Source: Escherichia coli (GTDB lineage: Bacteria; Pseudomonadota; Gammaproteobacteria; Enterobacterales; Enterobacteriaceae). Taken from it: a DNA stretch of 64,000 nt. Under the pieces are notes generated by a model that saw nothing but the letters and a program-made list of their open reading frames with translations, did not search any database and was not told the origin of the DNA. This document shows, in pieces, positions 3,627 to 47,662 of this stretch; within the stretch, counting starts at the first letter, position 1; the number at the start of each line of letters is the position of its first letter. The DNA lies in NCBI RefSeq assembly GCF_003790525.1, contig NZ_CP033635.1; one strand, given 5' to 3'. The position numbers and the translations under genes were made by a program.

Positions 3627-3970
3627 GATGCCCTCCAATATGGTTATTTTTTATTGTGAATTAAGATAGGTGAGTACGACGTAAAAAGATGTGAAGCAAA
3701 TCACATCAGTGTAATCGCTTACACTAACATTTATCTTGGTTATGATTTAAGTGCATGAAAATAATTGAGTTATATCATCATAGATTAAACGCTGTTATCT
3801 GCAATTAAGACTTTACTGAAAAGAAATGTAACAACTGTGAAAACCGAATAATAATATGAAAATATTACAAATCTTTGGCTGGTGTGGTTGGTGTAATCGG
3901 TTTCAGTAGCGATGATAATTTGCGGTAAAACGTGTTCAGGAAGAATGATGTTATTGTGCGGGCAGCTTTT

Positions 3971-7987: not shown

Positions 7988-8004
7988 TTAAGATTATTCC
8001 GCTG

Positions 8005-8045
8005 GCGGGTCGATTTATTTACGTAAATCGGCCCGCTTTCTTTTT
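8005..8045 (+). terminator. speA intrinsic terminator
   Basis: Inverted repeat gcgggtcgattta/taaatcggcccgc followed by tttcttttt. Confidence 0.6.
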
Positions 8046-8132
8046 ATATATTCTTAAAAATAATTTAGCTGCTTTTCTTATTAAATAATCCCCCTACAAT
8101 CGCTGCATTAATTAAATGCAGAGGGAACGGTT

Positions 8133-8864
8133 ATGAAAAAATGGAAAGTACGTAGCGCGTTGATAGCATTAGCCGTGCTGCTGGCCGGTTGTTCCAGTAA
8201 TGCGCAGTATAATAGCAGTGCATCAGGCAATGTCGGCACCGCCTGGGGTGGGGATGTGCACTCATCGGTTCAGGGCGTATCTGCTGAACGAGTCTGGCGC
8301 GATCCGGCAGAGATGATCGTTATTAGTTATTCGACTACTGTTCCTTCGGGCTACGACCGCGTTTATAGCATTCGTATTAACGAACTTGAATATGCTATTC
8401 GCGATGGTAATTTTAATTCTCTACCTATTACGCGGGTTTATGATTCGTCAAATAATGAACCACGCTATATTGTCCATGCCAGAGTAGGAATGAATTATCA
8501 ATTATATGTCCGCAATTACAGTCGTAATACCAACTACGAGATCGTTGCTACGGTTGATGGCCTGGATGTGCTGAACGGCAAGCAAGGTTCGCTGAATAAC
8601 AACGGCTATATTGTGAATGCCGGAGATTCGTTAGCGATTAAAGGATTCCGCAAAGATAAACATACCGAAGCGGCTTTTCAGTTCGCCAACGTTGTTGATT
8701 CCTACGCAGCCAATTCGGCGCAAGGCGATGTGCGTAATACCGGTGTAATCGGCTTTGCCGCCTTTGAATTACAAGGCCCGGCGCAAAACGCGCTGCCGCC
8801 GTGCTCTGGACAAGCCTTTCCGGCGGACAACAATGGCTATGCGCCGCCACCGTGTCGGAAATAG
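8133..8864 (+). CDS. predicted lipoprotein of unknown function (243 aa); not recalled in K-12 between speA and speB
   Basis: Signal peptide MKKWKVRSALIALAVLLAGC with lipobox LAGC; SD gagggaa upstream; own terminator downstream; N/S/Y-rich mature region; lower GC than neighbours by eye. Confidence 0.75.
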   Translation: MKKWKVRSALIALAVLLAGCSSNAQYNSSASGNVGTAWGGDVHSSVQGVSAERVWRDPAEMIVISYSTTVPSGYDRVYSIRINELEYAIRDGNFNSLPITRVYDSSNNEPRYIVHARVGMNYQLYVRNYSRNTNYEIVATVDGLDVLNGKQGSLNNNGYIVNAGDSLAIKGFRKDKHTEAAFQFANVVDSYAANSAQGDVRNTGVIGFAAFELQGPAQNALPPCSGQAFPADNNGYAPPPCRK

Positions 8865-8930
8865 CAACCTCGCTTGATGCCTCGTCCATTTAAGGCGATA
8901 ATTAGCGCAAACTTGTGTTTCGCAAATCCA

Positions 8931-9920: not shown

Positions 9921-10070
9921 GTCATCTGCCTGGTTGAATTTTTTACACAGTCCCTTGTCTGGCACAAGGGACTTATCATTTAAAACCTATCCTGTTAATT
10001 AAGTCATCTTTACCCTGACTGCTGTTTTTTTAATGGATTGTTATTATCACGTTTTTAATGGAATAAATAG

Positions 10071-11633
10071 ATGGAACGCACTCTTCCCTGGAAGCCCCTT
10101 CTTTGTTTGTTATTTCTTTTATCAACTGGCTGCGATAGAGCAGAAAAACAGAAAATTGCCGCACAGCTGCAACAAGACAAAGAAGCTATTTCCTCTGTCG
10201 TCAAAAAGAGTTATCGCGCATTATGTGGCCCTGAGTTTGTCACCAGCACAGATTCGCACGATCGCCTTGCGGAAATGCAGCAAGTATTTACACCTGCTTT
10301 AATGGAGCCTGTACTGAAATACTGGCAAGAGTCACCCAAAACGTGTAAACGACGTTTCCCCAGTTATAGCGATCCTTCAGCGACCTTCGTCGAAGGCGAC
10401 AAGGCGCAGATTGGTGCTTTTTTTGGTCACCAATCTTATATTGATATTCCAATGGAGTTAATCCGGCAAGGGGATGGTAAATGGAAGATTACTGCGATTG
10501 ATTTTGCATCGTTACACGAGTTTGAAAAAAACGGTCGGGTTACTGGTGAGGTGCAGAAGCAAATAGATTTGCTTAAAAAACGCTCATTCAAGCAACATAG
10601 GGATTCCCCTGTGCTGACGAGGACCGCGCCAGAGCGGGTCAGTAAGTCCCCTTTGACATCGATGGAGCAAACAGTTACGGAGCAAGACTCTTCCTGGCTG
10701 GATGTCTTACTGACAATAGGCAAATATGCCCTTTATCTGGTAGCGATAATACTTATTCTCGCCTTGGTGGCTGTTTTGTGGATTGGTTATGGCCTGGTGT
10801 TCGCCGGACATCGCCTTTTCAAAGCATCCTGTAGAGATCCCTCAATTCAAAAAATTCCTGTGGCTGAACGTTGGGCAATGGCAGTCGGCGCGCCTTATGC
10901 CATTGCGGGTAACAATCACTGGGCGCGACGAGTCGTTAATGATGATTCCGTGGAAGCAGAGAATGATTGCAAAAATGAAGTGGAGTCCCTTGCTGACATG
11001 TGGGGCGTCTTTGATCGGGATTCGTTACTTGAGCAACTCTTAGCTTTGTTTGTAGCAGGACATCGTCCAGTTTATGAAGAACAGATCAAAAACGATAGCG
11101 AAATGCCGGATGCTGAATATCGCGCGTTCGCTCAGCAATTAGCTCAGAACGCGAAATCAAGTAGCGAAGCGAAAGAGCGTTTGTGGCAGCTACAGATGGT
11201 CAGAAAAAATCGACGTAAAATATGCGATATAGATTTTTGTGCCTGGGATATGGTGCGTTTTGTCATGCTATGTAATAGCGGGGCGCAAGTGGGATACATT
11301 ACCCAGCGTGAAATGGTCGATTTTTCGATGCTGGCAGCCAGACGCGTACAGCAACATTACAGAAGCTGGCGCGAATTGGCCGGGCATTTTTTGCTGGCCC
11401 GTTGGTACTGGAAAGCAACGGATAAACGGCACCTGATTACCCATATTCTTTTTAAGAAAGCCATTACATCTTTATTAGAAGAGCAGGGGAGTCCGTGGCG
11501 TACTTTACCCTGGGATACTCCATTACCTGAAGGAACAGAGACGGCTTTTGCCTGGGCTTGTGGCGTAAGCACTGCCGATGTCGTAGAGGTGCGATCGGAT
11601 ACACCAGATAAAGCAATCTACGAAGCGAATTGA
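10071..11633 (+). CDS. hypothetical lipoprotein/membrane protein (520 aa): lipobox N-terminal domain, one TM helix, Trp-rich C-terminal domain (possibly DUF1266-like)
   Basis: N-terminus MERTLPWKPLLCLLFLLSTGC (lipobox LSTGC); hydrophobic helix YALYLVAIILILALVAVLWIGYGLVFAG mid-protein; AT-rich coding sequence; not recalled at this position in K-12. Confidence 0.7.
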   Translation: MERTLPWKPLLCLLFLLSTGCDRAEKQKIAAQLQQDKEAISSVVKKSYRALCGPEFVTSTDSHDRLAEMQQVFTPALMEPVLKYWQESPKTCKRRFPSYSDPSATFVEGDKAQIGAFFGHQSYIDIPMELIRQGDGKWKITAIDFASLHEFEKNGRVTGEVQKQIDLLKKRSFKQHRDSPVLTRTAPERVSKSPLTSMEQTVTEQDSSWLDVLLTIGKYALYLVAIILILALVAVLWIGYGLVFAGHRLFKASCRDPSIQKIPVAERWAMAVGAPYAIAGNNHWARRVVNDDSVEAENDCKNEVESLADMWGVFDRDSLLEQLLALFVAGHRPVYEEQIKNDSEMPDAEYRAFAQQLAQNAKSSSEAKERLWQLQMVRKNRRKICDIDFCAWDMVRFVMLCNSGAQVGYITQREMVDFSMLAARRVQQHYRSWRELAGHFLLARWYWKATDKRHLITHILFKKAITSLLEEQGSPWRTLPWDTPLPEGTETAFAWACGVSTADVVEVRSDTPDKAIYEAN

Positions 11634-11680
11634 TGCCCCAAATGATTGAGCTTGTTTAATGACTGTGACCGGCTCTGAAT

Positions 11681-11712
11681 GAAAATTTCTCCGACATTCC
11701 TGTCGGAGAAAT
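11681..11712. terminator. bidirectional hairpin between convergent 520-aa ORF and loiP
   Basis: Inverted repeat ttctccgaca/tgtcggagaa with U-rich flank on minus strand. Confidence 0.5.
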
Positions 11713-11718
11713 ATGAAA

Positions 11719-12477
11719 TCACTTTATCCCATCCGCGCTCATACGATCGCGAATATGCTGGGCGCGTTCGGCGGATGCTGGATGGTCGTCAAACATTGAG
11801 CTTTGACGGCCTTCTTCCAGTTTTGCCAGTTTTTCAAAGCTGGTGGCAAGACCTGCCGGGCTGATGCCGCGTTGGCGCAGAAGATCGTAAGAATAATCAT
11901 CGGCTTCTGCTTCCTGGCGCTGGGAGAATTGCGAATTAACTAATTTCTCGCCCAGATCACCGAGTTGTGATTGAGATAAACTGCCGACAATCCCGCCCGC
12001 AGAGGCCGCAGCTACTCGTACGGCATTTGTACCAAGTGCCACCTGCATCCCTTTCTTCACATGGCCTAACGCTACGTGCCCCATCTCGTGACCGATCACC
12101 GCTTCGACTTCGTTATCTGTCATCATATCCATCAGCCCGCTATAGACGCGGATACAGCCGTTAGCCATTGCAAAGGCGTTCACATCCTTCGCCATATACA
12201 CTTTGTAATTCACCGGCTGACCGTTGATATTGTTGCCTAGCGCATTGGCAATAGTTGTCAGACGTTTAGCGTATTCGCTATTGGTTGGCGCAATCGTCGC
12301 CTTGCTGTCCATCTCCTGACATGCCTGATCGCTCAGGGTTTTCACCTGCGCATCACTCAAACTGTAAGCCTGAAAAGCTTCCGCTCCTGATGAGAGCAGT
12401 CCGTTGGAGTCCATATTCTGGCAACCGGTCAGTACCGTTGCCACGCTCATTGCTACCAATAAGGCGCGAATTTTCAT
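11719..12477 (-). CDS. loiP: outer-membrane M48 metalloprotease lipoprotein LoiP (YggG)
   Basis: ORF 11719..12696; internal start MKIRALLVAMSVATVLTGCQN (lipobox) and HEMGH zinc motif; 252 aa. Confidence 0.9.
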   Translation of the reverse strand: MKIRALLVAMSVATVLTGCQNMDSNGLLSSGAEAFQAYSLSDAQVKTLSDQACQEMDSKATIAPTNSEYAKRLTTIANALGNNINGQPVNYKVYMAKDVNAFAMANGCIRVYSGLMDMMTDNEVEAVIGHEMGHVALGHVKKGMQVALGTNAVRVAAASAGGIVGSLSQSQLGDLGEKLVNSQFSQRQEAEADDYSYDLLRQRGISPAGLATSFEKLAKLEEGRQSSMFDDHPASAERAQHIRDRMSADGIK

Positions 12478-12754: not shown

Positions 12755-14746
12755 ATGTCCTCACGTAAAGAGCTTGCCAATGCTATTCGTGCGCTGAGCA
12801 TGGACGCAGTACAGAAAGCCAAATCCGGTCACCCGGGTGCCCCTATGGGTATGGCTGACATTGCCGAAGTCCTGTGGCGTGATTTCCTGAAACACAACCC
12901 GCAGAATCCGTCCTGGGCTGACCGTGACCGCTTCGTGCTGTCCAACGGCCACGGCTCCATGCTGATCTACAGCCTGCTGCACCTCACCGGTTACGATCTG
13001 CCGATGGAAGAACTGAAAAACTTCCGTCAACTGCATTCCAAAACGCCGGGCCACCCGGAAGTGGGCTACACCGCAGGTGTGGAAACCACTACTGGTCCGC
13101 TGGGTCAGGGTATTGCCAACGCAGTCGGTATGGCGATTGCAGAAAAAACGCTGGCGGCGCAGTTTAACCGTCCGGGCCACGACATTGTCGACCACTACAC
13201 CTACGCCTTCATGGGTGACGGCTGCATGATGGAAGGCATCTCCCACGAAGTTTGCTCTCTGGCGGGTACGCTGAAGCTGGGTAAACTGATTGCGTTCTAC
13301 GATGACAACGGTATCTCTATCGATGGTCACGTTGAAGGCTGGTTCACCGACGACACCGCAATGCGTTTCGAAGCTTACGGCTGGCACGTTATTCGCGGCA
13401 TCGACGGTCATGACGCGGCATCCATCAAACGCGCAGTAGAAGAAGCGCGCGCAGTGACTGACAAACCGTCCCTGCTGATGTGCAAAACCATCATCGGTTT
13501 CGGTTCACCGAACAAAGCCGGTACCCACGACTCCCACGGTGCGCCGCTGGGCGACGCTGAAATTGCCCTTACCCGCGAACAGCTGGGCTGGAAATATGCA
13601 CCGTTCGAAATCCCGTCTGAAATCTATGCTCAGTGGGATGCGAAAGAAGCAGGCCAGGCGAAAGAATCCGCATGGAACGAGAAATTCGCTGCTTACGCGA
13701 AAGCTTATCCGCAGGAAGCCGCTGAATTTACCCGCCGTATGAAAGGCGAAATGCCGTCTGACTTCGATGCCAAAGCGAAAGAATTCATCGCTAAACTGCA
13801 GGCTAATCCGGCGAAAATCGCCAGCCGTAAAGCGTCTCAGAATGCGATTGAAGCGTTCGGCCCGCTGTTGCCGGAATTCCTCGGCGGCTCTGCTGACCTG
13901 GCACCGTCTAACCTGACCCTGTGGTCTGGTTCTAAAGCAATCAACGAAGATGCTGCGGGTAACTACATCCACTACGGTGTTCGCGAGTTCGGTATGACCG
14001 CGATTGCTAACGGTATCTCCCTGCACGGTGGCTTCCTGCCGTACACCTCCACCTTCCTGATGTTCGTGGAATACGCACGTAACGCCGTACGTATGGCTGC
14101 GCTGATGAAACAGCGTCAGGTGATGGTTTACACCCACGACTCCATCGGTCTGGGCGAAGATGGCCCGACTCACCAGCCGGTTGAGCAGGTCGCTTCACTG
14201 CGCGTGACCCCGAACATGTCCACATGGCGTCCGTGTGACCAGGTTGAATCCGCGGTCGCGTGGAAATACGGCGTTGAGCGTCAGGACGGCCCGACTGCGC
14301 TTATCCTCTCCCGTCAGAACCTGGCGCAGCAGGAACGTACTGAAGAGCAGCTGGCAAACATCGCGCGCGGTGGTTATGTGCTGAAAGACTGTGCCGGTCA
14401 GCCGGAACTGATCTTCATCGCGACCGGTTCTGAAGTTGAACTGGCGGTTGCTGCCTACGAAAAACTGACTGCTGAAGGCGTGAAAGCGCGCGTGGTTTCC
14501 ATGCCGTCTACCGACGCGTTCGACAAGCAGGATGCGGCTTACCGTGAGTCTGTACTGCCGAAAGCGGTTACTGCACGCGTTGCGGTGGAAGCGGGTATTG
14601 CTGACTACTGGTACAAGTATGTTGGCCTGAACGGTGCTATCGTCGGCATGACCACCTTCGGTGAATCTGCTCCGGCAGAGCTGCTGTTTGAAGAGTTCGG
14701 CTTCACCGTTGACAACGTTGTTGCGAAAGCAAAAGAACTGCTGTAA
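12755..14746 (+). CDS. tktA: transketolase 1
   Basis: ORF 12725..14746; [41 protein letters not shown] matches TktA. Confidence 0.95.
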
Positions 14747-14767
14747 TCGGTAAGATACTTTGTGAGA

Positions 14768-14793
14768 AGGGCCGCGAAAGCGGCCCTTTTTTT
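14768..14793. terminator. tktA intrinsic terminator (bidirectional, abuts SPFH gene stop)
   Basis: gggccgc-gaaa-gcggccc followed by ttttttt. Confidence 0.7.
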
Positions 14794-15700
14794 ACTTAGT
14801 AGAGATAAACGGAACTGTGCTGCCGGGGATCATGGTATCGGGCAGTTTACCGTCCCAACGTTCGGCAGTGGTGAGGGCTACAAGTCCGGGATTATCCCGC
14901 AGAGCTTCACCGCGCAGGCGGATCGCTTCTGCTTCAGCCGCACTTTTTAAACGAATAGTTTCAGCCTCTGCCGCGCCTCTTACGCGAATAGTTTCCGCTT
15001 CTGCTTTAGCTGCCGCCAGTTTACTGTCTGCTTCTGCCTGGGCCTGAGTTACCGCTATTTGCGCCTGGATTTTCTCTGTTTCCAGATTTTGCTTACGCGT
15101 GGCAATGGCGACTTCTGCTTTCATTCGGTCTTCAATCGACTTTTCATAAGCGTCAGAAAAATCAATATTTTCAATCTGGACCCCGTCAATTACCACTGGC
15201 CCAACAACGGCTTTGCGCATGGCATTTTGCAGATCCTGAACCAGTTTTGTACGATCCTGTACAGCGCTGATGGCGGTATATTGGCCGAAAACGTTCTCCA
15301 GTTGAGTTGGCAACTGACGGACAATCAGACGATCTTTTAATGCTTCAATGGTGTTGTAGGTGGTATAAACCGCGCCTGCTTCTGAAGGTTTAATGTGGAA
15401 GCTGACTGATACTGTCATTTGTGCCGGTTGCTGGTCGCGGCTGTAGGCCTGTAATCCCTGATAGACCACAGCCTGATTACGCGTGGAAATTTTCTCCACG
15501 CTTTCCATAAACGGGATCTTAAAACCCAGACCCGGCTCGGCAACTTTTACGATTTTTCCGTAGCGCAGCAAAATGCCGCGTTCACCTTCATTAACGGTGT
15601 AATACGAGAGAAATGGCAGCACAACCACGGCAAGCACGCCAATGGCGATAGCAAGAGATTTTTGTGGGCGAAATGAGGTTAATGAAACAGGTGCTTTCAT
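14792..15700 (-). CDS. SPFH/band-7 (prohibitin/HflC-like) membrane protein with C-terminal coiled-coil repeats; not recalled in K-12 between tktA and cmtB
   Basis: N-terminal TM helix LAIAIGVLAVVVLPF, SPFH-like core, C-terminal AEAETIR(V/L)RG repeats and ERWDGKLP motif; SD aggaag upstream of ATG 15700. Confidence 0.7.
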   Translation of the reverse strand: MKAPVSLTSFRPQKSLAIAIGVLAVVVLPFLSYYTVNEGERGILLRYGKIVKVAEPGLGFKIPFMESVEKISTRNQAVVYQGLQAYSRDQQPAQMTVSVSFHIKPSEAGAVYTTYNTIEALKDRLIVRQLPTQLENVFGQYTAISAVQDRTKLVQDLQNAMRKAVVGPVVIDGVQIENIDFSDAYEKSIEDRMKAEVAIATRKQNLETEKIQAQIAVTQAQAEADSKLAAAKAEAETIRVRGAAEAETIRLKSAAEAEAIRLRGEALRDNPGLVALTTAERWDGKLPDTMIPGSTVPFISTK

Positions 15701-16077
15701 GACAATCTTCCTTGAGTAAAGTGTGGGAATATGTCACATGAGATGAGGAGAAAACAGCCGACAGGTGAGAATTCAGAATCTATAAAGGGGTATAGCGAAA
15801 AAACATTGCTTTAAAAAAGTATGTTTTCGGACATTCAATAAATAAATGGCGATATGCATCACAAATACAACAATAATCAAAATGTTGATTTTGTGATAAA
15901 CGTAACAAATACAAAGTTGACTTTAAAAATATCAACTTCATGTTGTTATTATTTAAGGTTTTATTATTTTTGTTCATGGGGTTTTTCTTCTCGCGTACCC
16001 AATTGCTTTCATTAAACCGCACGAGTATTTTATTTTTACCGCCGGACGGTACCCTAAAAATAAAATAAGGATAATTT

Positions 16078-16521
16078 ATGCGGCTTAGTGATTATTTTCC
16101 AGAATCATCAATCTCAGTTATACATTCAGCAAAAGATTGGCAGGAAGCTATCGATTTCTCGATGGTATCATTGCTGGATAAAAACTATATCAGCGAGAAT
16201 TACATTCAGGCAATTAAAGATTCCACCATTAACAATGGCCCTTATTATATTCTCGCACCAGGCGTGGCAATGCCTCATGCGCGACCGGAATGTGGGGCGC
16301 TTAATACCGGGATGTCTTTGACATTACTTGAACAAGGTGTTTATTTTCCGGGGAATGACGAACCTATTAAATTACTCATCGGACTCTCTGCTGCCGATGC
16401 CGATTCGCACATTGGCGCTATTCAGGCGTTAAGTGAATTACTGTGCGAAGAAGAAATACTCGAACAACTCTTAACAGCATCATCAGAAAAACAATTAGCG
16501 GACATTATCAGCCGCGGATAA
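16078..16521 (+). CDS. cmtB: PTS mannitol-type EIIA component (cryptic)
   Basis: 147-aa ORF with PTS EIIA-2 fold signature (GVAMPHA); followed by cmtA. Confidence 0.85.
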   Translation: MRLSDYFPESSISVIHSAKDWQEAIDFSMVSLLDKNYISENYIQAIKDSTINNGPYYILAPGVAMPHARPECGALNTGMSLTLLEQGVYFPGNDEPIKLLIGLSAADADSHIGAIQALSELLCEEEILEQLLTASSEKQLADIISRG

Positions 16522-16548
16522 TTACTCTCTCCTCTACAGGATAATATT

Positions 16549-17937
16549 ATGGAAAACAAGTCTGCTCGTGCAAAGGTCCAGGCTTTTGGGGGCTTTTTGA
16601 CTGCAATGGTCATCCCCAATATTGGTGCTTTTATTGCCTGGGGTTTTATTACTGCATTATTTATTCCTACTGGTTGGCTGCCTAACGAACATTTCGCCAA
16701 AATTGTCGGCCCGATGATTACCTATTTATTGCCCGTGATGATTGGTTCTACCGGTGGCCATTTAGTCGGCGGTAAACGCGGCGCGGTCATGGGCGGAATA
16801 GGTACTATTGGTGTGATCGTCGGCGCAGAGATCCCGATGTTCCTTGGCTCAATGATTATGGGGCCGCTCGGTGGGCTGGTCATAAAATATGTCGATAAGG
16901 CACTGGAAAAACGCATACCTGCTGGTTTTGAGATGGTTATCAATAACTTCTCATTAGGTATCGCGGGGATGCTCCTTTGTCTGCTGGGTTTTGAAGTGAT
17001 CGGCCCGGCGGTGTTAATTGCCAATACTTTCGTCAAAGAGTGTATTGAGGCGCTGGTACATGCGGGTTATCTGCCTCTGCTGTCAGTCATCAATGAACCG
17101 GCGAAAGTGCTTTTCCTTAATAATGCGATCGATCAGGGCGTCTATTATCCGCTGGGAATGCAACAGGCTTCGGTTAACGGTAAATCCATCTTCTTTATGG
17201 TGGCCTCTAACCCAGGTCCGGGCCTGGGGCTGCTGCTGGCGTTTACCTTGTTTGGTAAAGGGATGAGTAAACGTTCTGCGCCCGGGGCGATGATTATTCA
17301 CTTCCTCGGTGGGATCCACGAACTGTATTTCCCGTATGTGCTGATGAAGCCGCTGACCATTATTGCCATGATTGCAGGCGGTATGTCTGGCACCTGGATA
17401 TTTAACTTACTGGACGGTGGTCTGGTGGCTGGCCCAAGTCCGGGGTCTATCTTTGCGTACCTGGCACTGACGCCGAAAGGCTCGTTCCTGGCGACAATTG
17501 CTGGTGTTACGGTAGGTACCCTGGTGTCCTTTGCTATCACTTCGCTGATACTGAAGATGGAAAAAACGGTGGAAACGGAGAGCGAAGATGAGTTTGCTCA
17601 GTCAGCCAATGCGGTTAAGGCGATGAAACAAGAGGGTGCATTCTCGCTAAGCAGAGTTAAGCGTATCGCCTTTGTTTGCGATGCGGGGATGGGCTCCAGT
17701 GCGATGGGCGCGACGACCTTCCGTAAACGCCTGGAAAAAGCGGGGCTGCCAATTGAAGTAAAACATTACGCGATAGAAAACGTGCCTGCGGATGCGGATA
17801 TCGTCGTTACTCATGCCAGTCTGGAAGGGCGCGTGAAACGTGTGACGGATAAACCGCTGATATTGATTAATAACTATATTGGCGATCCAAAACTCGACAC
17901 TTTATTTAATCAATTAACCGCCGAACATAAACACTGA
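16549..17937 (+). CDS. cmtA: PTS mannitol-type EIICB component (cryptic)
   Basis: 462-aa polytopic membrane protein with C-terminal EIIB domain (CDAGMGSSAMG). Confidence 0.85.
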   Translation: MENKSARAKVQAFGGFLTAMVIPNIGAFIAWGFITALFIPTGWLPNEHFAKIVGPMITYLLPVMIGSTGGHLVGGKRGAVMGGIGTIGVIVGAEIPMFLGSMIMGPLGGLVIKYVDKALEKRIPAGFEMVINNFSLGIAGMLLCLLGFEVIGPAVLIANTFVKECIEALVHAGYLPLLSVINEPAKVLFLNNAIDQGVYYPLGMQQASVNGKSIFFMVASNPGPGLGLLLAFTLFGKGMSKRSAPGAMIIHFLGGIHELYFPYVLMKPLTIIAMIAGGMSGTWIFNLLDGGLVAGPSPGSIFAYLALTPKGSFLATIAGVTVGTLVSFAITSLILKMEKTVETESEDEFAQSANAVKAMKQEGAFSLSRVKRIAFVCDAGMGSSAMGATTFRKRLEKAGLPIEVKHYAIENVPADADIVVTHASLEGRVKRVTDKPLILINNYIGDPKLDTLFNQLTAEHKH

Positions 17938-17951
17938 TTACAGAGGTAAAA

Positions 17952-19229
17952 ATGAAAACCAAAGTTGCTGCTATTTATGGCAAGCGGGATGTCCGTCTGC
18001 GCGAATTTGAACTGCCAGAAATTACCGATAATGAACTGTTAGTGAGTGTAATTTCTGACAGCGTCTGTTTATCGACCTGGAAAGCGGCGTTGCTTGGTAG
18101 TGAACATAAACGCGTACCCGACGATTTAGAAAATCATCCGGTCATTACCGGGCATGAATGTGCCGGGGTTATTGTTGAAGTGGGTAAAAATCTCACCGAC
18201 AAATATAAAAAAGGCCAGCGTTTTGTATTGCAACCGGCGATGGGGTTACCAAGCGGATATTCAGCGGGCTACAGCTACGAATATTTTGGCGGTAACGCCA
18301 CCTATATGATTATTCCCGAGATCGCCATTAACCTGGGCTGCGTATTACCCTATCACGGCTCTTATTTTGCTGCGGCGTCGCTGGCAGAGCCTATGTGCTG
18401 CATTATTGGCGCTTATCATGCCAATTATCACACTACGCAATATGTTTATGAGCATCGCATGGGCGTCAAACCTGGCGGCAATATTGCGCTGCTGGCGTGT
18501 GCAGGTCCGATGGGCATTGGCGCTATCGATTACGCCATTAACGGCGGTATACAACCGTCGCGGGTGGTGGTGGTCGATATCGACGACAAACGGCTGGCGC
18601 AGGTAGAGAAGCTGCTGCCGGTGGAACTGGCGGCCAGTAAAGGCATTGAGCTGGTGTATGTGAATACCAAAGGGATGAGCGATCCGGTACAGATGCTGCG
18701 GGCGCTGACGGATGATGCCGGATTTGATGACGTATTTGTCTATGCAGCGGTGCCTTCAGTCGTCGAGATGGCTGATGAATTACTGGCGGAAGATGGCTGC
18801 ATGAACTTCTTTGCCGGGCCAACGGATAAAAACTTCAAAGTGCCGTTTAATTTCTACAACGTCCATTACAACAGCACGCACGTCGTCGGTACATCTGGCG
18901 GTTCAACGGACGACATGAAAGAGGCGATTACCCTTAGCGCCACGGGACAGTTACAGCCGTCGTTTATGGTGACCCATATTGGTGGCCTTGATGCGGTGCC
19001 AGAAACCGTGCTCAATCTGCCGGATATCCCAGGCGGTAAAAAACTCATTTATAACGGCGTGACCATGCCGCTCACTGCCATTGCCGATTTTGCCGAAAAA
19101 GGCAAAACCGATCCGCTGTTTAAAGAGTTGGCGCGGCTGGTTGAGGAAACGCACGGCATCTGGAATGAGCAGGCCGAGAAATATCTGCTGGCGCAATTTG
19201 GCGTTGATATCGGGGAGGCCGCGCAATGA
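17952..19229 (+). CDS. yggP: zinc-dependent alcohol/polyol dehydrogenase family protein
   Basis: 425-aa ORF MKTKVAAIYGKRDVRLREFELPEI...; MDR-family features (GHECAG). Confidence 0.8.
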   Translation: MKTKVAAIYGKRDVRLREFELPEITDNELLVSVISDSVCLSTWKAALLGSEHKRVPDDLENHPVITGHECAGVIVEVGKNLTDKYKKGQRFVLQPAMGLPSGYSAGYSYEYFGGNATYMIIPEIAINLGCVLPYHGSYFAAASLAEPMCCIIGAYHANYHTTQYVYEHRMGVKPGGNIALLACAGPMGIGAIDYAINGGIQPSRVVVVDIDDKRLAQVEKLLPVELAASKGIELVYVNTKGMSDPVQMLRALTDDAGFDDVFVYAAVPSVVEMADELLAEDGCMNFFAGPTDKNFKVPFNFYNVHYNSTHVVGTSGGSTDDMKEAITLSATGQLQPSFMVTHIGGLDAVPETVLNLPDIPGGKKLIYNGVTMPLTAIADFAEKGKTDPLFKELARLVEETHGIWNEQAEKYLLAQFGVDIGEAAQ

Positions 19230-20191
19230 TGTCCCTGGCGTGGCCATTATTTCGCGTTACGGAACAGGCAGCGTTGGCTGCCTGGCCGCAAATCGGATGT
19301 GGCGACAAAAATAAAATTGATGGCCTGGCGGTCACCGCGATGCGCCAGGCATTAAACGACGTCGCTTTTCGTGGGCGAGTGGTTATCGGCGAGGGAGAGA
19401 TTGACCATGCGCCGATGCTGTGGATTGGCGAAGAGGTGGGCAAAGGCGATGGGCCAGAAGTCGATATCGCGGTTGATCCGATTGAAGGCACCAGGATGGT
19501 GGCGATGGGGCAGAGCAATGCGCTGGCAGTCATGGCCTTCGCCCCACGAGGCAGCCTGCTACACGCTCCCGATATGTATATGAAAAAACTGGTTGTTAAT
19601 CGGCTGGCGGCGGGCGCGATTGATCTGTCTTTGCCACTGGTGGACAACCTGCGCAACGTGGCGAAAGCGTTAGGCAAACCGCTGGACAAGCTGCGCATGG
19701 TTACGCTGGATAAACCGCGCCTGAGTGCCGCGATTGAAGAAGCAACACAGCTGGGCGTGAAGGTTTTCGCTCTGCCGGATGGCGATGTCGCCGCCAGCGT
19801 GCTGACCTGCTGGCAGGATAATCCTTACGATGTGATGTACACCATCGGCGGTGCGCCAGAAGGCGTGATTTCTGCCTGTGCCGTTAAAGCATTAGGCGGG
19901 GATATGCAGGCCGAGCTGATTGACTTTTGTCAGGCTAAAGGGGATTACACGGAAAATCGGCAGATTGCAGAGCAGGAGCGCAAGCGTTGCAAGGCAATGG
20001 GCGTTGACGTTAACCGTGTGTACTCGCTCGATGAACTGGTGAGGGGGAACGATATCCTCTTTAGCGCTACGGGCGTGACGGGTGGCGAGTTGGTGAACGG
20101 TATCCAACAGACGGCGAATGGGGTGCGGACGCAGACATTACTGATCGGCGGCGCGGACCAAACGTGTAATATAATAGACTCCCTGCATTGA
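19226..20191 (+). CDS. yggF: class II fructose-1,6-bisphosphatase (GlpX-like)
   Basis: 321-aa ORF with GlpX-like motifs; start overlaps yggP stop. Confidence 0.85.
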   Translation: MMSLAWPLFRVTEQAALAAWPQIGCGDKNKIDGLAVTAMRQALNDVAFRGRVVIGEGEIDHAPMLWIGEEVGKGDGPEVDIAVDPIEGTRMVAMGQSNALAVMAFAPRGSLLHAPDMYMKKLVVNRLAAGAIDLSLPLVDNLRNVAKALGKPLDKLRMVTLDKPRLSAAIEEATQLGVKVFALPDGDVAASVLTCWQDNPYDVMYTIGGAPEGVISACAVKALGGDMQAELIDFCQAKGDYTENRQIAEQERKRCKAMGVDVNRVYSLDELVRGNDILFSATGVTGGELVNGIQQTANGVRTQTLLIGGADQTCNIIDSLH

Positions 20192-20212
20192 TGGTGATCT
20201 ATCGGAAGACGA

Positions 20213-20722
20213 ATGGCGACGCTGACAGAAGATGATGTGCTTGAGCAACTGGATGCACAGGACAATTTATTTTCATTTATGAAAACTGCGCATTCTATTT
20301 TGCTCCAGGGGATACGCCAGTTTCTGCCGTCGCTGTTTGTCGATAACGATGAAGAGATCGTCGAATATGCAGTGAAGCCGTTACTCGCCCAAAGCGGCCC
20401 GCTTGACGATATTGATGTTGCGCTGCGTTTGATTTATGCGCTGGGGAAAATGGATAAATGGCTGTACGCCGATATCACGCATTTTTCCCAGTTCTGGCAT
20501 TACCTGAACGAACAGGATGAAATGCCCGGATTTGCCGATGACATGACCTGGGATTTTATCAGCAACGTCAATAGTATAACCCGCAATGCGACGCTCTATG
20601 ACGCATTGAAAGCGATGAAGTTCGCCGATTTCGCCGTCTGGTCAGAGGCGCGTTTTAGCGGGATGGTCAAAACGGCGCTGACGCTGGCAGTAACGACCAC
20701 CTTAAAGGAATTAACGCCGTGA
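20213..20722 (+). CDS. yggD: MtlR-like regulator/fumarase E family protein
   Basis: 169-aa ORF MATLTEDDVLEQLDAQDNLFSFMKTAHSILLQG... matches YggD. Confidence 0.8.
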   Translation: MATLTEDDVLEQLDAQDNLFSFMKTAHSILLQGIRQFLPSLFVDNDEEIVEYAVKPLLAQSGPLDDIDVALRLIYALGKMDKWLYADITHFSQFWHYLNEQDEMPGFADDMTWDFISNVNSITRNATLYDALKAMKFADFAVWSEARFSGMVKTALTLAVTTTLKELTP

Positions 20723-21432
20723 AAATTGAATTAACGGTGAATGGGCTGAAGATACAGGCACAGTACCAGAACGAAGAGATTGAAAATGTACATAAACCGT
20801 TGCTGCACATGTTGGCGGCCTTACAGACGGTAAATCCGCAGCGGCGTACGGTGGTTTTTCTTTGCGCTCCGCCGGGGACGGGTAAATCTACCCTAACCAC
20901 CTTCTGGGAATATATCGCGCAACAAGACCCGGAACTGCCCGCTATTCAGACGCTACCGATGGATGGTTTTCATCATTACAATAGCTGGCTGGATGCGCAT
21001 CAATTGCGCCCCTTCAAAGGCGCACCAGAGACATTTGACGTTGCGAAACTGGCGGAAAATCTGCGCCAGGTCGTGGAAGGGGATTGTACGTGGCCGCAGT
21101 ACGATCGACAAAAGCATGATCCTGTTGAAGATGCGTTGCACGTTACCGCACCACTCGTCATCGTCGAAGGAAACTGGTTGTTGCTGGACGACGAGAAGTG
21201 GCGCCAGCTTGCGCAATTTTGTGATTTCTCGATCTTTATCAAAGCTCCCGCATCTGCGTTGCGGGAGCGTCTGGTGGGGCGCAAGCTGGCGGGAGGGTTA
21301 TCGCTGGCAGACGCAGAAGCCTTTTATGACCGTACCGACGGGCCGAATGTTCGCCGGGTGCTGGAAGAGAGTCTGCCTGCAAATTTGACCTTAATGATGA
21401 CCGCTACGGGTGAATATCGTCTGATGGATTAA
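20719..21432 (+). CDS. yggC: P-loop kinase (uridine kinase/PRK-like)
   Basis: 237-aa ORF, GTG start overlapping yggD stop; Walker A APPGTGKST. Confidence 0.8.
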   Translation: MKIELTVNGLKIQAQYQNEEIENVHKPLLHMLAALQTVNPQRRTVVFLCAPPGTGKSTLTTFWEYIAQQDPELPAIQTLPMDGFHHYNSWLDAHQLRPFKGAPETFDVAKLAENLRQVVEGDCTWPQYDRQKHDPVEDALHVTAPLVIVEGNWLLLDDEKWRQLAQFCDFSIFIKAPASALRERLVGRKLAGGLSLADAEAFYDRTDGPNVRRVLEESLPANLTLMMTATGEYRLMD

Positions 21433-22081
21433 CGTTCCTGATTACACCATCTTCCAGTCGCACCACACGAGAGAAATGACGCCGGGTAAATGCGGCGTCA
21501 TGACTGATTGCTACGACGCTCGTGCCTCGCTGGCGGCACTTTTCCAGCCAACTTTCAAACACGCTCATCCAATTTTCGTCAAAATCCCGACTCGGCTCGT
21601 CCAGCAGCAATAGCGGCGGAGAGAGTGCTTCCAGGCAGGCGACGGCGACCATCCGTCGCTGCGCACTATGCAGATCCAGCGGATGCGCGCTGGCAGTGTC
21701 TGCTAACTGACAGCATTGCAGGGCAGCATTGGTACGTTGAGTGATTTCATCCGCCGGGCATTTTTGCAGTTTCAAACCAAATGCGATCTCGTCAGCGACG
21801 GTGCTGTGAAAAAGCTGGTTTTCCGCTTCCTGAAACAGTACGCCAATCTTTGCCGCGCGCTGGCGGTTTTTCAGGTTTTTCATCGCCTGTTGTTGCAGCA
21901 TAACCGTACCGGCTGTGGGCGTAAGAAGACCTGCCATTACTCGTAACAGCGTCGATTTTCCCGCGCCATTGTCGCCGGTCAGCGCCAACCATTCACCTTG
22001 TTTGAGTTGCAGAGAAATGTCGCAAAGACAATCCGTTGCCGCGTCAGGCCAGCGATAAGTTATCTGATTTAACGTTAACAT
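21404..22081 (-). CDS. ABC-type ATPase, ECF-transporter energizing subunit with degenerate signature motif (EcfA'-like)
   Basis: Walker A GDNGAGKST, Walker B LLLLDEPSRDFD, H-loop ISHD, but signature region reads LHSAQRR instead of LSGGQ; ATG 22081 overlaps upstream ATPase stop (ATGTTAA). Confidence 0.75.
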   Translation of the reverse strand: MLTLNQITYRWPDAATDCLCDISLQLKQGEWLALTGDNGAGKSTLLRVMAGLLTPTAGTVMLQQQAMKNLKNRQRAAKIGVLFQEAENQLFHSTVADEIAFGLKLQKCPADEITQRTNAALQCCQLADTASAHPLDLHSAQRRMVAVACLEALSPPLLLLDEPSRDFDENWMSVFESWLEKCRQRGTSVVAISHDAAFTRRHFSRVVRLEDGVIRNVNPSDDIHP

Positions 22082-22752
22082 AGTGGCTGGAGCGCTCCGT
22101 TTTGCAATTGCCACGCTTGCTGGCAGTAGTTCAGGAAAGGTGTACGATGACGTTCAAAAAGAATAATCAGCGAACCACGTTCAAGCGCCCAGTGTTGTAA
22201 GCGCTGCAACAGCATTTCGCAGGCCTGCGGCGTCAGGCGGCTAAAGGCTTCATCAAGAATTAAGAGCTTTGGCTGCATCGCGATGGCGCAGGCGATGACC
22301 ACACGCTGTGTCTCTCCACCGGAGAGTGTTGCCGGGTGACGATGGCGCAACGGCTGGCACTCGGTCAGAGTCAGGGCGGCATCAATCCGCGCCATAATCT
22401 CCTCTTCAGCAAGACACAGATTTTCTGGCCCAAAGGCAACTTTTTCTTCCACGCTAAAGGTACAGCCGGAGAGCTGCAAATAGGGCGATTGCTGAACGAG
22501 CTGGATGGTGGCGGATTGTTCATTAAGCGGGATATGCCCAATGGGCGTACCGAGAAGCGTCCCCGTGCCGGTTATCTCTCCTGGCAGAAAGTCCGGATAC
22601 CAGCCCGCCATCAGCTGTGCCAGCGTACTTTTGCCACTGCCGTTGTCACCAAAGATGGCGACCATCCCCGGTTTGACATAGTGAAAGTCATAACAGAACG
22701 GAGGATGCGTTGAGTGTGTCGGGCAATAGCGAAACTGTTCTAACGTAACCAT
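22075..22752 (-). CDS. ABC-type ATPase, ECF-transporter energizing subunit (EcfA-like)
   Basis: Walker A GDNGSGKST, canonical signature LSGGETQR, Walker B LLILDEA; start could be 22758 or 22752. Confidence 0.75.
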   Translation of the reverse strand: MVTLEQFRYCPTHSTHPPFCYDFHYVKPGMVAIFGDNGSGKSTLAQLMAGWYPDFLPGEITGTGTLLGTPIGHIPLNEQSATIQLVQQSPYLQLSGCTFSVEEKVAFGPENLCLAEEEIMARIDAALTLTECQPLRHRHPATLSGGETQRVVIACAIAMQPKLLILDEAFSRLTPQACEMLLQRLQHWALERGSLIILFERHRTPFLNYCQQAWQLQNGALQPLC

Positions 22753-23447
22753 ATCCACGCTCCGAATTCAGCCAGCATTAGCAAGATCATGGCGTAACGT
22801 GCTACGCGTTGTAGGGTGCTATCGGCTGGTGCCCATAACGTAGTGCGCCTATTGTTGATTCGAAATGCCCGCATATCCAGCGCCGCACCACGGACAGCCA
22901 GATCGTTAAGCGCATTGTGTGTTAGCGGAATAATTAGCGCGGGCATCGCGCGTAAACGCTGATACCAGCCTTCATCAAGCGGCACGCCGCGGGCGCGCTG
23001 CGCTTCATGAATAATCGCTAATTGCCGTTTTAACTGCTCAACGACCAACAACGGCCCGGCGAACAGATAAGCGACGCCCGGCGGCAGGCGAGAAGCAAAC
23101 AAAGCGCGGATAAAACGTTGCACTGGGACGTACTGCATCCACAACTGCGAGGTTGAAACAATCGCCAGAATCCGCAACCAGAGCGTAATAGCATGCGTCC
23201 ACCGTTCTGGCGAGCGTGGCGTGCCGCTTAGCCATTCTATCAGCCAGCCACCGTGTACCAGCCACAGTCCAGCCCCCAGCGAGAACATCAGCCAGACGAC
23301 ATATTTTGCCCGCCGCCGCGTGGCCTTTAGCGCAATAAGGCAGAAAAAGGTCGCCGCGCTATAGACTGGCAATATTGTCTGTGTGGGCAGGATAAGCGTG
23401 GTGTAGGCCGCCAGCGCCCACAGCGTTAATGAGGTAAACGGATGCAT
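22740..23447 (-). CDS. ECF transporter transmembrane T component (CbiQ/EcfT-like)
   Basis: Polytopic 235-aa protein with Ala-Arg-Gly-type coupling motifs (EAQRARGV; LAVRGAALD); ATG directly follows stop of upstream gene. Confidence 0.65.
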   Translation of the reverse strand: MHPFTSLTLWALAAYTTLILPTQTILPVYSAATFFCLIALKATRRRAKYVVWLMFSLGAGLWLVHGGWLIEWLSGTPRSPERWTHAITLWLRILAIVSTSQLWMQYVPVQRFIRALFASRLPPGVAYLFAGPLLVVEQLKRQLAIIHEAQRARGVPLDEGWYQRLRAMPALIIPLTHNALNDLAVRGAALDMRAFRINNRRTTLWAPADSTLQRVARYAMILLMLAEFGAWIWLR

Positions 23448-24026
23448 TTAGCGCACGGCTGCCATTGCCGGAAAATGGCGCGTGGTGCGAATCGGCAGCT
23501 GACGCAGTAAAAGCCAGACAATCACCGCTGTAAGAATTTTATCGACCAGGTTTGCGCCTATCACCGTAATCGCCACCGACTCCACCAGGTTTTGCCCCAT
23601 AGAGTGCATCCAGGCAACGAACAAATCGGCTCCGCTACCGGTGACACCGCCGAACAGCGCAGTACGCAGCGGTACAGCGACGACCGTTACCGCAAGCGTA
23701 ATAATCACGCCGCTGACAACGACTTTTGGCAGGGTGCGGAACCAACCCGCTCGCGCCAGCCAACCGGCGACCAGGCCGATGACCATCGCCACGGGCGCAA
23801 ATGCGGCGGCGATCGGGTCGGTCAGCAATCCCCAGAGTAAATTGGTCAGTAAGCCGGTCAGCATCCCGATCACCGGACCAAGCAGTACCGCGCTAATAAG
23901 TGTGCCGACGGAGTCGAGAAATATAGGTAATTTGACCATGCTGGCCAGTTGCCCGCCGATCATATTGATGGCGATAGATATAACGATCAACACCAGCGCC
24001 TGACTGGAAAAGTGGCGACGCGCCAT
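23448..24026 (-). CDS. small integral membrane protein, putative ECF substrate-capture S component
   Basis: About 190 aa, 5-6 predicted TM helices, sits first in transporter gene order; start chosen at MARRHFSSQ (ORF extends to 24125). Confidence 0.55.
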   Translation of the reverse strand: MARRHFSSQALVLIVISIAINMIGGQLASMVKLPIFLDSVGTLISAVLLGPVIGMLTGLLTNLLWGLLTDPIAAAFAPVAMVIGLVAGWLARAGWFRTLPKVVVSGVIITLAVTVVAVPLRTALFGGVTGSGADLFVAWMHSMGQNLVESVAITVIGANLVDKILTAVIVWLLLRQLPIRTTRHFPAMAAVR

Positions 24027-24048
24027 AAGAAAACCTCTCTGAAAATAG

Positions 24049-24480
24049 TTAGTTAACGGGGGAAATATGCAACTCGTCGTAACCAGAAAGCGCGCAAGGC
24101 TGGCGGCTAAACGCCAGTTCCTCAAGGCAGCCGATCACCAGTTCAAGCGTGGTCCGCACGGTACAGCCGGGCATCATATGACCGCCAAGCATCGTGCCGT
24201 GTGGATCGGAAACGCAGAGATGAAGATGTTCACCACTCTGTTCCAGCGTGCCGTTCAATGCGATGACTTCGAACTTACCGCTTAGTAGGGCAGTGTTTTC
24301 TTGCCCGGCATAGCGTAAGGCGACGTCAGTCAGACTGCCGGTACAACCTGCAATCCACGCGGCGTGAAGTTGTTGTTGCTGCGCGAAGGCGCGTAATTGG
24401 GAGAGAACTTCCTGCCCGGGGAGCAGGCGCAGCGCGTAAAAACGTGCGGAGGAAGAATATGGGTAGGGCAATGTCATCAT
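24049..24480 (-). CDS. DUF296/PPC-domain-like protein (143 aa) of unknown function, first gene of the cluster
   Basis: 143-aa ORF; family assignment from recollection of PPC-domain proteins, not verified. Confidence 0.5.
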   Translation of the reverse strand: MMTLPYPYSSSARFYALRLLPGQEVLSQLRAFAQQQQLHAAWIAGCTGSLTDVALRYAGQENTALLSGKFEVIALNGTLEQSGEHLHLCVSDPHGTMLGGHMMPGCTVRTTLELVIGCLEELAFSRQPCALSGYDELHISPVN

Positions 24481-24608
24481 TGGAGTACTCCGAAACTCGG
24501 ACGTATTGCGGATAATATCGACGCTGCATCAGTCATATTCTGATATAAGTCAGGGTTTGTGACGGCACAACGAAAAGATTTTGCTACGCTTATTCGTGAT
24601 TCTGCAAA

Positions 24609-24624
24609 GTGGAATAAATTCCAC
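24609..24624. promoter_or_regulatory. inverted repeat GTGGAA-N4-TTCCAC in divergent intergenic region, with a further copy of the motif at 24690..24699
   Basis: gtggaataaattccac at 24609..24624; ttttattccac at 24689..24699 is the same motif inverted; lies between the DUF296/ECF cluster and epd. Confidence 0.3.
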
Positions 24625-24851
24625 AGGGGCGGGGCTGAAAACGTGACGTAAGTCAGATAATTGTCTTCTTTGACTGGACAATCATTCCTTTTATTCCACG
24701 TTTCGCTTATCCTAGCTGAAGCGTTTCAGTCGATTAAATGTTCGACAATTAACCAATCAGTCGCAGTTTGCGACAGGTAAGGTTTCCCCGGACGATTTGC
24801 TGGATTACTCTGTCTGGCAAATTTGCTCAGGGAAAACCTTGCAGGAGATCT

Positions 24852-37526: not shown

Positions 37527-37729
37527 TATTTGCTCCGTAAAACGCAATCAAAATGAGGGTATTTGCGCTTACGGTGAGCTTTTTACGTGGGTTTGTCGCC
37601 AGCAAAAAAAATGCATTCAGACGTCGTTTTTTGCCGCCTGAGATTTGTCTATTTTGTGATGTGATTCAAGGAATACAAAAAGAAGTGAGGATAACGCCTG
37701 ATATGTGCTATCAGGCATTATTTGATGGA

Positions 37730-39665: not shown

Positions 39666-39920
39666 TCTGACGGGGGAACCTCCCCCGTTAAAAAAATTCT
39701 CTTCATTAAATTTGGTGACATGTGTCACGTTTTTACCTGGCTATTGTCGATTGCTCTAAATAAACCCTCTAAACCAGCATATTCATCCAAGAAATACCTT
39801 TGCGTGATATTTCCTCAACATCGCGACGCAAACGTTCATATTGCCGCAATATTATTTTTTGATATGTTGAAAGGCGGATGCAAATCCGCACACAACATTT
39901 CAAAAGACAGGATTGGGTAA

Positions 39921-47216: not shown

Positions 47217-47662
47217 AAATTTCTCTTCTGTTGTTTATTTGATACCCATCACACTTTCATCTCCCGGTTTTTTCGCCGGGAGATTTTCCTCATTTGAAAT
47301 AAACTAATTTCACCTCCGTTTTCGCATTATATTTTCTAATGCTATGATTTTTTGATTTAGTGTTTTTTGACATTTTTTTAGTTCTTAATATTGCCTTATT
47401 CAAATTAACTTTCTAATGGCATCATCTTTATATAGAAACTAGAGTGTTTTTTGGTTTTTTATTCTGTCGCGATTTTGGCGTTTTTTAACCATAAGCTAAT
47501 GTGATGATCAATTTTACCTTATGGTTAACAGTCTGTTTCGGTGGTAAGTTCAGGCAAAAGAGAACGATTGCGTTGGGGACCGGGAGTGGCTCCGATGCTG
47601 GGTTTCGTGGTGATAATTTCACCATGAAAAGTTGTCAGCCCCGCTTATTCAATGAGGACAAG

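Follow-up and report, generated by a model that had tools for sequence, protein, structure and literature searches.

The 64,000 nucleotides (64 kb) of Escherichia coli DNA analysed here, referred to throughout as the window, contain a 377-bp spacer at positions 15701-16077, lying between a leftward SPFH/prohibitin gene and the rightward cmtB. The boundaries of both genes are as annotated by RefSeq in a genome that is 100% identical, and a 1601-bp stretch around the spacer is 100% identical to E. coli strain TUM1586. The genes of the locus, and the hairpin found among them, are as follows.

12755-14746, plus strand: tkt, placed by gene order
14769-14793, no strand assigned: hairpin GGGCCGC-GAAA-GCGGCCC with a T-run, where tkt and SPFH converge (sequence)
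14792-15700, minus strand: SPFH/Band 7 (prohibitin family) gene, 302 aa (Pfam PF01145, E = 5.6e-32; RefSeq)
16078-16521, plus strand: cmtB, an open reading frame followed by cmtA, yggP, yggF, yggD and yggC
16078-21432, plus strand: operon of cmtB-cmtA-yggP-yggF (glpX-type FBPase)-yggD (fumE)-yggC (Pfam, RefSeq)

The operon has been designated cmtBA-yggPFDC (PMC3105977 Table S3), is called cryptic in a RefSeq note, and is listed for K-12 as FNR-activated by one transcriptome data set out of three (PMC3688515 Table S8). Its yggD gene is now annotated in RefSeq as the fumarase FumE, not as an MtlR-like repressor. When positions 16078-17937 of the window were compared with four other records (L004, L005, L006 and L011), the identity of CmtB (EIIA) was 86-95% at the amino acid level and 87-94% at the DNA level, and that of CmtA 97-99% at the amino acid level. 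As the amino acid sequence of CmtB has changed about as much as its DNA, selection on cmtB looks relaxed or diversifying, with cmtA being strongly constrained. The cmtB gene of the window (approximately 16078-16521) is intact, unlike that of TUM1586, which matches the window at 100% over 14600-16200 and in which an IS1 has left cmtB as a two-piece pseudogene (L001 5479-6698).

Other segments of the window also lack a K-12 counterpart. One of 3.3 kb (21364-24630), between yggC and the epd side, is absent from K-12, and encodes an ECF-type transporter set, comprising two ABC ATPases, a CbiQ-like T component, an S component and a PCC-domain protein. No K-12 alignment was found for 7988-8922, with a 243-aa open reading frame (8133-8864) without a Pfam match, nor for 9922-11720, with a 520-aa DUF1266 protein (10071-11633) next to loiP.

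The spacer has a GC content of 0.318 (31.8%), compared with 0.518 for the window, 0.493 for the SPFH gene and 0.423 for cmtB. Equally GC-poor 377-bp stretches constitute only 0.25% of all those in the 64 kb, the lowest GC of any being 0.302, and the only other regions with GC of 0.34 or below are found upstream of galP and between gcvT and ubiI. Hence an earlier description of the locus made without database searches (the sequence-only reading) was exact in its coordinates, and correct in noting an AT-rich gap of 377 bp upstream of cmtB. The AT-rich tract extends beyond the spacer on both sides, running from approximately 15598 to 16266.

An alignment of eleven alleles splits the spacer in two: an SPFH side, from 15701 to approximately 15807, and a cmt side, from approximately 15808 to 16077. 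Conserved blocks on the SPFH side are kept as far as Pseudocitrobacter, and those on the cmt side as far as K-12 and E. albertii. The spacer therefore belongs to the double-promoter class of intergenic regions, defined as a divergent gene pair in which each gene has conserved upstream elements. This agrees with the sequence-only reading in regarding the gap as a divergent regulatory region, the promoters themselves being predictions. The features of the SPFH side are these.

15701-15807, minus strand: SPFH 5' region, without a K-12 counterpart (multi-allele alignments, invariant runs)
15708-15713, minus strand: SPFH SD sequence AAGGAA (alignment)
15726-15736, minus strand: invariant GGAATATGTCA, read on the minus strand as a putative extended -10, TGaCATATT (alignment)
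15770-15787, minus strand: conserved block AATTCAGAATCTATAAAG (alignment, Pseudocitrobacter comparison)

These elements suggest that 15701 to approximately 15807 would serve as a short promoter and 5'-UTR for the leftward SPFH gene, with the putative extended -10 TGaCATATT approximately 28 bp before the SPFH ATG, followed by the AAGGAA ribosome-binding site. The core of AATTCAGAATCTATAAAG, CTTTAT.GA.TTCTGAA, is also found upstream of the Pseudocitrobacter SPFH gene. At the other end of SPFH, the hairpin at 14769-14793 is likely to be the tkt terminator, judging by its sequence; an identical GGGCCGC-GAAA-GCGGCCC hairpin lies 3' of tkt in Pseudocitrobacter, whereas the K-12 terminator differs. 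The window has this hairpin singly in its tkt-SPFH gap (14747-14794), and in other Escherichia the gap holds between one and three tandem units of approximately 174 bp (L084 1648-1866, L085 1648-2040 and L005 4907-5481), each containing REP/BIME-like palindromes and bounded by another copy of the tkt hairpin. An Rfam match to AaHKsRNA20 (Aggregatibacter sRNA 20) at 14731-14798 on the plus strand scored 31.1 bits against a gathering score of 43, and was set aside as most likely being just the tkt hairpin.

The cmt side contains a longer series of conserved elements, listed here from its distal edge towards cmtB.

15819-15847, plus strand: conserved block GTATGTTTTCGGACATTCAATAAATAAAT, bordering the cmt control region on its distal side, recognisable throughout the alleles, K-12 and E. 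albertii among them (alignment)
15848-15863, no strand assigned: predicted CRP box 1, GGCGATATGCATCACA, 12.7 bits, its centre 222.5 bp upstream of the cmtB ATG (PWM)
15892-15907, no strand assigned: predicted CRP box 2, TGTGATAAACGTAACA, 13.7 bits, its centre 178.5 bp upstream of the cmtB ATG (PWM)
15917-15952, plus strand: candidate cmt core promoter (consensus scan, crude sigma-70 scoring, invariant columns)
15917-15922, plus strand: TTGACT, 16 bp before CATGTT at 15939-15944 (consensus scan, sigma-70 scoring)
15944-15952, plus strand: alternative candidate extended -10, TGtTATTAT (consensus scan)
16000-16077, plus strand: conserved leader of 78 bp, 100% identical to K-12 and O157
16067-16071, plus strand: cmtB SD sequence AAGGA, directly after an inverted repeat (sequence)

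The CRP boxes, sought as 16-bp matches to TGTGA-N6-TCACA, were scored using a PWM derived from 92 ETEC H10407 ChIP-seq sites (PMC4287617 Table S3), from which the cmtB site had been left out. Both score near the median of the real ChIP-seq sites (13.4 bits), and rank third and fourth among all 16-mers in the 64 kb, in which only five positions reach at least 12 bits. As a positive control, the known galP, gcvT, serA and argP/scpA sites are likewise found by this PWM. The boxes at 3690-3705, 47238-47253, 39714-39729 and 37655-37670 match the published K-12 boxes of galP, gcvT/visC, serA and argP/scpA, respectively, and two of these four fall in the window's only other stretches with GC of 0.34 or below.

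Lying 44 bp apart, the two boxes repeat each other directly over 20 nt, and the left half of box 1 is weaker in the window's allele (GGCGA). The box centres, at -222.5 and -178.5, do not shift between the E. coli alleles examined, K-12 included, even though the sequence around them is only approximately 50% identical; in E. albertii the 44-bp spacing is kept, 6 bp nearer to the ATG. Box 2 holds its position in 10 of 11 alleles, being degenerate in the FDAARGOS_1251-type allele. In that allele (L087 2775-3150), which corresponds to the 471 genomes in the 60-80% identity band described below, box 2 reads TGTAGTTTACTTAACA and scores below 5 bits, and cmt may therefore be regulated differently in those strains. 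An invariant CAATA at 15836-15840 lies inside the GTATGTTTTCGGACATTCAATAAATAAAT block, for which comparison by eye of 15819-15847 with the Cra, NagC/Mlc and IHF consensus sequences gave no convincing match.

Box 1 aligns with the K-12 box CGTGTTGTAGATCACA, making it the positional homologue of a site listed at -222.5 for cmtBA-yggPFDC by genomic SELEX (PMC3105977 Table S3). The activity of a K-12 cmtB promoter fragment is lost in a crp mutant (PMC3105977), and the cmtB CRP site of ETEC H10407 is a ChIP-seq peak with a fold-above-threshold of 16, among the stronger ones (PMC4287617 Table S3). Activation of the cmt operon by CRP is hence experimentally grounded for the K-12-type allele only, with positional homology suggesting that CRP would act likewise on the allele in the window.

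Downstream of box 2, TTGAC (15917-15921) is invariant, beginning nine bp after the box. By a crude sigma-70 score, the best plus-strand candidate in most alleles is TTGACT, with a spacer of 16-18 bp to CATGTT or a similar sequence. The alternative extended -10, TGtTATTAT, is within the conserved TGTTAT.TA box (15944-15955). Measured from these candidate promoters, box 2 would be near -52 if TTGACT were the -35, and near -62 if the TGTTAT.TA box were the -10. A site near -52 is not known as a classical activating position for CRP; reading TGTTAT.TA as the -10 leaves the invariant TTGAC without explanation. A generic promoter scan found three sites, compared with 2.6 expected in shuffled sequence, and therefore cannot place promoters. 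Hence the divergent promoters anticipated by the sequence-only reading are matched by conserved blocks in both directions, but not by generic prediction. In the supplement of the Cappable-seq study cmtB is not mentioned, and a terminator scan of the spacer found no terminator-like site.

In the leader, a perfect inverted repeat of 13 nt (16026-16038 and 16055-16067) encloses an invariant stem, TACCG/CGGTA (16037-16041 and 16047-16051), with a loop that varies between alleles. The 101-nt leader folds better than shuffled sequences (z = -2.8), and a consensus fold across the alleles contained 0 compensatory pairs. Without compensatory change, an RNA structure is not established for the leader, and the hairpin could equally be an RNA element or a protein-binding palindrome. 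A pairing of 16009-16022 with the start-codon region, suggested by a single-sequence fold, was rejected, as it is lost in four other alleles.

Together, these elements point to approximately 15808-16077 as the control region of the rightward cmtBA-yggPFDC operon. Within it, cAMP-CRP would bind the two boxes 44 bp apart, at 15848-15863 and 15892-15907, and activate a presumably weak core promoter, probably located near TTGACT at 15917-15922. The resulting transcript would carry a leader of approximately 115-130 nt, the final 78 nt of which are strongly conserved, with the putative hairpin directly before the ribosome-binding site.

Comparison with K-12 divides the spacer more finely. The 78 bp next to cmtB (16000-16077) are identical; upstream of 16000 identity drops abruptly, to approximately 50% over the next 190 bp or so, and the approximately 107 bp on the SPFH side have no counterpart. 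The right part is nevertheless homologous to K-12 (z = 4.7, a score reached by 1 of 1000 shuffles), even though standard blastn of 14748-15999 against K-12 returned no alignment. Hence K-12 does not carry an identical spacer abutting tktA, which would have told against the sequence-only reading: only the 78 bp are shared unchanged.

About 1816-1828 of the 5426 complete E. coli genomes surveyed carry the SPFH gene. SPFH-negative genomes in this set, which include K-12, B and O157, have a 313-bp spacer between tkt and cmtB. The K-12-type distal region was found in 3595 of the 5426, and is nearly monomorphic, with 3585 of these being at least 95% identical, whereas the SPFH-positive spacer, found in 1828 genomes, ranges from 60 to 100% identity; between them, these classes cover 5423 genomes. 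When the SPFH protein was scanned against one genome per bacterial species, the order tkt-SPFH-cmtB was found in E. whittamii, Escherichia sp. MOD1-EC7003 and E. albertii, with 96-99% protein identity, and it also occurs in E. coli SCPM. In Pseudocitrobacter, SPFH adjoins tkt, with 85% protein identity. As tkt-SPFH-cmtB is found in other Escherichia, and tkt-SPFH in Pseudocitrobacter, the SPFH arrangement is ancestral, and that of K-12 derived. It would follow that SPFH and its 5' region were lost from about two thirds of E. coli (K-12, B and O157 among them), in which a very divergent allele also took the place of the distal cmt control region, the probable crossover being at 15999/16000. It is the divergence of the K-12-type allele that points to replacement.

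The distal part of the cmt control region also varies greatly between strains that retain SPFH. This segment, and its identity to the window in other alleles, are set out below.

15808-15999, no strand assigned: hypervariable ('switched') distal cmt control region, defined by allele identities
Closest E. coli alleles: 91-98% identity to the window (15808-15998)
FDAARGOS_1251 type (E. coli): 71-74% (15808-15998)
SCPM type (E. coli): 73% (15808-15998)
K-12 type (E. coli): 50% (15808-15998)
E. whittamii and Escherichia sp. MOD1: about 80% (15808-15998)
E. albertii: about 50% (15808-15998)

Across the 1828 SPFH-positive genomes, identity was at least 99% in 14, 95-99% in 279, 90-95% in 1052, 80-90% in 12 and 60-80% in 471. 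The exact spacer allele of the window is therefore rare, with just those 14 genomes at or above 99%. The window itself is a mosaic, in which a distal spacer of the SPFH-positive kind is joined to a K-12-like leader and cmtB. The clearest pair is that of AREA_486 and FDAARGOS_1251, in which tkt, SPFH, cmtB and cmtA are 99-100% identical, whereas approximately 325 bp of the spacer are only 72-78% identical; by the strict gene-pair definition, this is a switched intergenic region. Such patterns suggest that short-tract recombination in SPFH-positive strains has also swapped the spacer on its own.

We conclude that the spacer is probably a two-part divergent regulatory region, which retains the ancestral Escherichia arrangement. 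Its AT-richness is the usual look of such a promoter region, and may additionally attract H-NS. Several alternatives were weighed against this. That the spacer conceals a small gene, encoding a small protein, leader peptide or sRNA, is very improbable. Several open reading frames of 27-80 aa could be taken in its favour, as could the folding of the leader relative to shuffles, and a 42-aa frame that stops right at the cmtB ribosome-binding site. Seven open reading frames of at least 20 aa overlap the spacer, of which five are inside it, and these include a low-complexity frame of 80 aa (15780-16022, minus strand) and that of 42 aa (15940-16068, plus strand). However, when the five inner frames were followed in ten other alleles, each lost its start, or gained stops or frameshifts, in several. 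A search of Rfam at E ≤ 1 over 14000-17000 gave nothing below E = 0.1 inside the spacer, and neither a terminator-like site nor covariation supports an RNA gene; a match to CrcZ in the spacer, at 16.6 bits against a gathering score of 95, was dismissed as chance. With every frame that was followed breaking in other alleles, and nothing credible in Rfam, the spacer is gene-free, as it had been described. Just as improbable is the suggestion, made by the sequence-only reading, that the spacer is an insertion scar, with SPFH having arrived as a small islet and the AT-rich DNA being foreign sequence at its edge. The gene is indeed missing from K-12, B and O157, blastn does not align 14748-15999 with K-12, and the composition of the spacer differs from that of the flanking genes. 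Yet tkt-SPFH-cmtB is found in three other Escherichia species or lineages, and tkt-SPFH with the same hairpin in Pseudocitrobacter, making SPFH ancestral; the indel boundary is near 15808, inside the spacer rather than at its edges. There is no mobility gene between tkt and cmtB, nor is there a tRNA or a flanking direct repeat, the only direct repeats being the two CRP boxes and a 9-mer. Furthermore, the GC of SPFH (0.493) is close to that of the window (0.518), it is the SPFH-negative allele that is nearly monomorphic and the SPFH-positive alleles that are old and diverse, and two thirds of the spacer, on its right, have a homologous counterpart upstream of cmtB in K-12. The proposal of a scar is therefore contradicted.

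Silencing by H-NS, likewise proposed by the sequence-only reading, is a different matter, as it is compatible with a divergent regulatory region: the AT-rich tract would nucleate filaments, holding the 'cryptic' cmt operon, and possibly SPFH too, in the off state. We regard this as a tentative possibility. It is favoured by 68% A+T over 377 bp, within the tract from approximately 15598 to 16266, and by the description of the operon as cryptic. The invariant TTCAATAAATA (15834-15844) is also similar to tCGATAAATT, a high-affinity H-NS motif. A search of literature text for cmtA or cmtB together with H-NS returned no occupancy or hns-mutant expression data for the locus. On the other side, CRP occupies the K-12-type region strongly in vivo, at a fold-above-threshold of 16, and the promoter fragment is measurably active, so the region is not simply closed in K-12-type strains; moreover, the boxes conserved in position are CRP boxes, rather than generic AT-rich DNA. 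A further question is whether the diversity of the distal alleles is held by diversifying or balancing selection on cmt regulation, as opposed to neutral divergence followed by introgression, and selection seems unlikely. In favour of selection, a single species carries at least four sharply bounded allele classes with 50-75% identity; one class, of 471 genomes, has a degenerate box 2; and CmtB changes fast at the protein level. However, divergence of the distal region between species is approximately that of neutral sites, at about 80% identity to E. whittamii and MOD1, in which flanking genes are 90-95% identical, and about 50% to E. albertii, in which flanking genes are 87-90% identical. 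With such neutral-like divergence, short-tract import from other Escherichia lineages suffices, and selection need not be invoked. A specific form of selection, in which 15808-15999 is a long-lived multi-allelic module that sets different levels of, or inputs to, cmt expression, is quite doubtful; under it, only the CRP boxes, TTGAC and TGTTAT.TA may be held in register, with the rest being exchangeable. Were this module to exist, the PTS operon called 'cryptic' in K-12 would be functional in extra-intestinal lineages.

With the spacer understood as a two-part regulatory region, the K-12 reference represents the derived state of the locus, SPFH is no islet, and the spacer is no scar. Therefore the annotation of the cmtB promoter in K-12, and its regulon data, transfer only partly to the SPFH-positive third of E. 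coli, to which one strain of ST69 and one of ST1193 belong. Relative to the first reading of this DNA, what is new is that the SPFH arrangement is ancestral, and that the distal cmt control region has been exchanged alone, both being known kinds of phenomena. The locus is also a clean and easily assayed case of intergenic-only exchange between otherwise identical flanks.

The nearest comparison is with the cmtB region of K-12 and ETEC H10407, which shares with the window the same operon, the same 78-bp leader, the same box distances (-222.5 and -178.5), and TTGAC and TGTTAT.TA boxes in matching places. In K-12, however, the region abuts the tkt terminator, whereas here it continues into the approximately 107-bp SPFH 5' region and the divergent gene, and the box-carrying stretch of approximately 190 bp is only about 50% identical, CRP binding and dependence having been measured for the K-12-type allele only. 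A second comparison is with bgl, an H-NS-silenced cryptic sugar operon. The cmt operon likewise has an AT-rich upstream region and a CRP site, and is described as cryptic, but its K-12 promoter fragment is measurably active and CRP-dependent. The paralogous mannitol PTS operon, mtlADR, resembles cmt in that both control a mannitol-family PTS via several CRP boxes; in ETEC ChIP-seq, mtlA has two boxes and a fold-above-threshold of 27, compared with 16 for cmtB (PMC4287617). Unlike mtlADR, cmt is without a known dedicated repressor site, and the likeness drawn here is one of regulatory layout.

Finally, the exchange of the distal control region belongs with the switched intergenic regions, or horizontal regulatory transfer, of the Piggy paper, where such regions are defined with citation of earlier work on E. 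coli and are common (PMC5890482). As in those cases, conserved flanking genes enclose highly divergent intergenic alleles with sharp boundaries, to the extent that the K-12 allele has no blastn match to that of the window. Here, though, the alleles are related, with the CRP boxes and core boxes in register. Hence they are divergent homologues, rather than non-homologous replacements.
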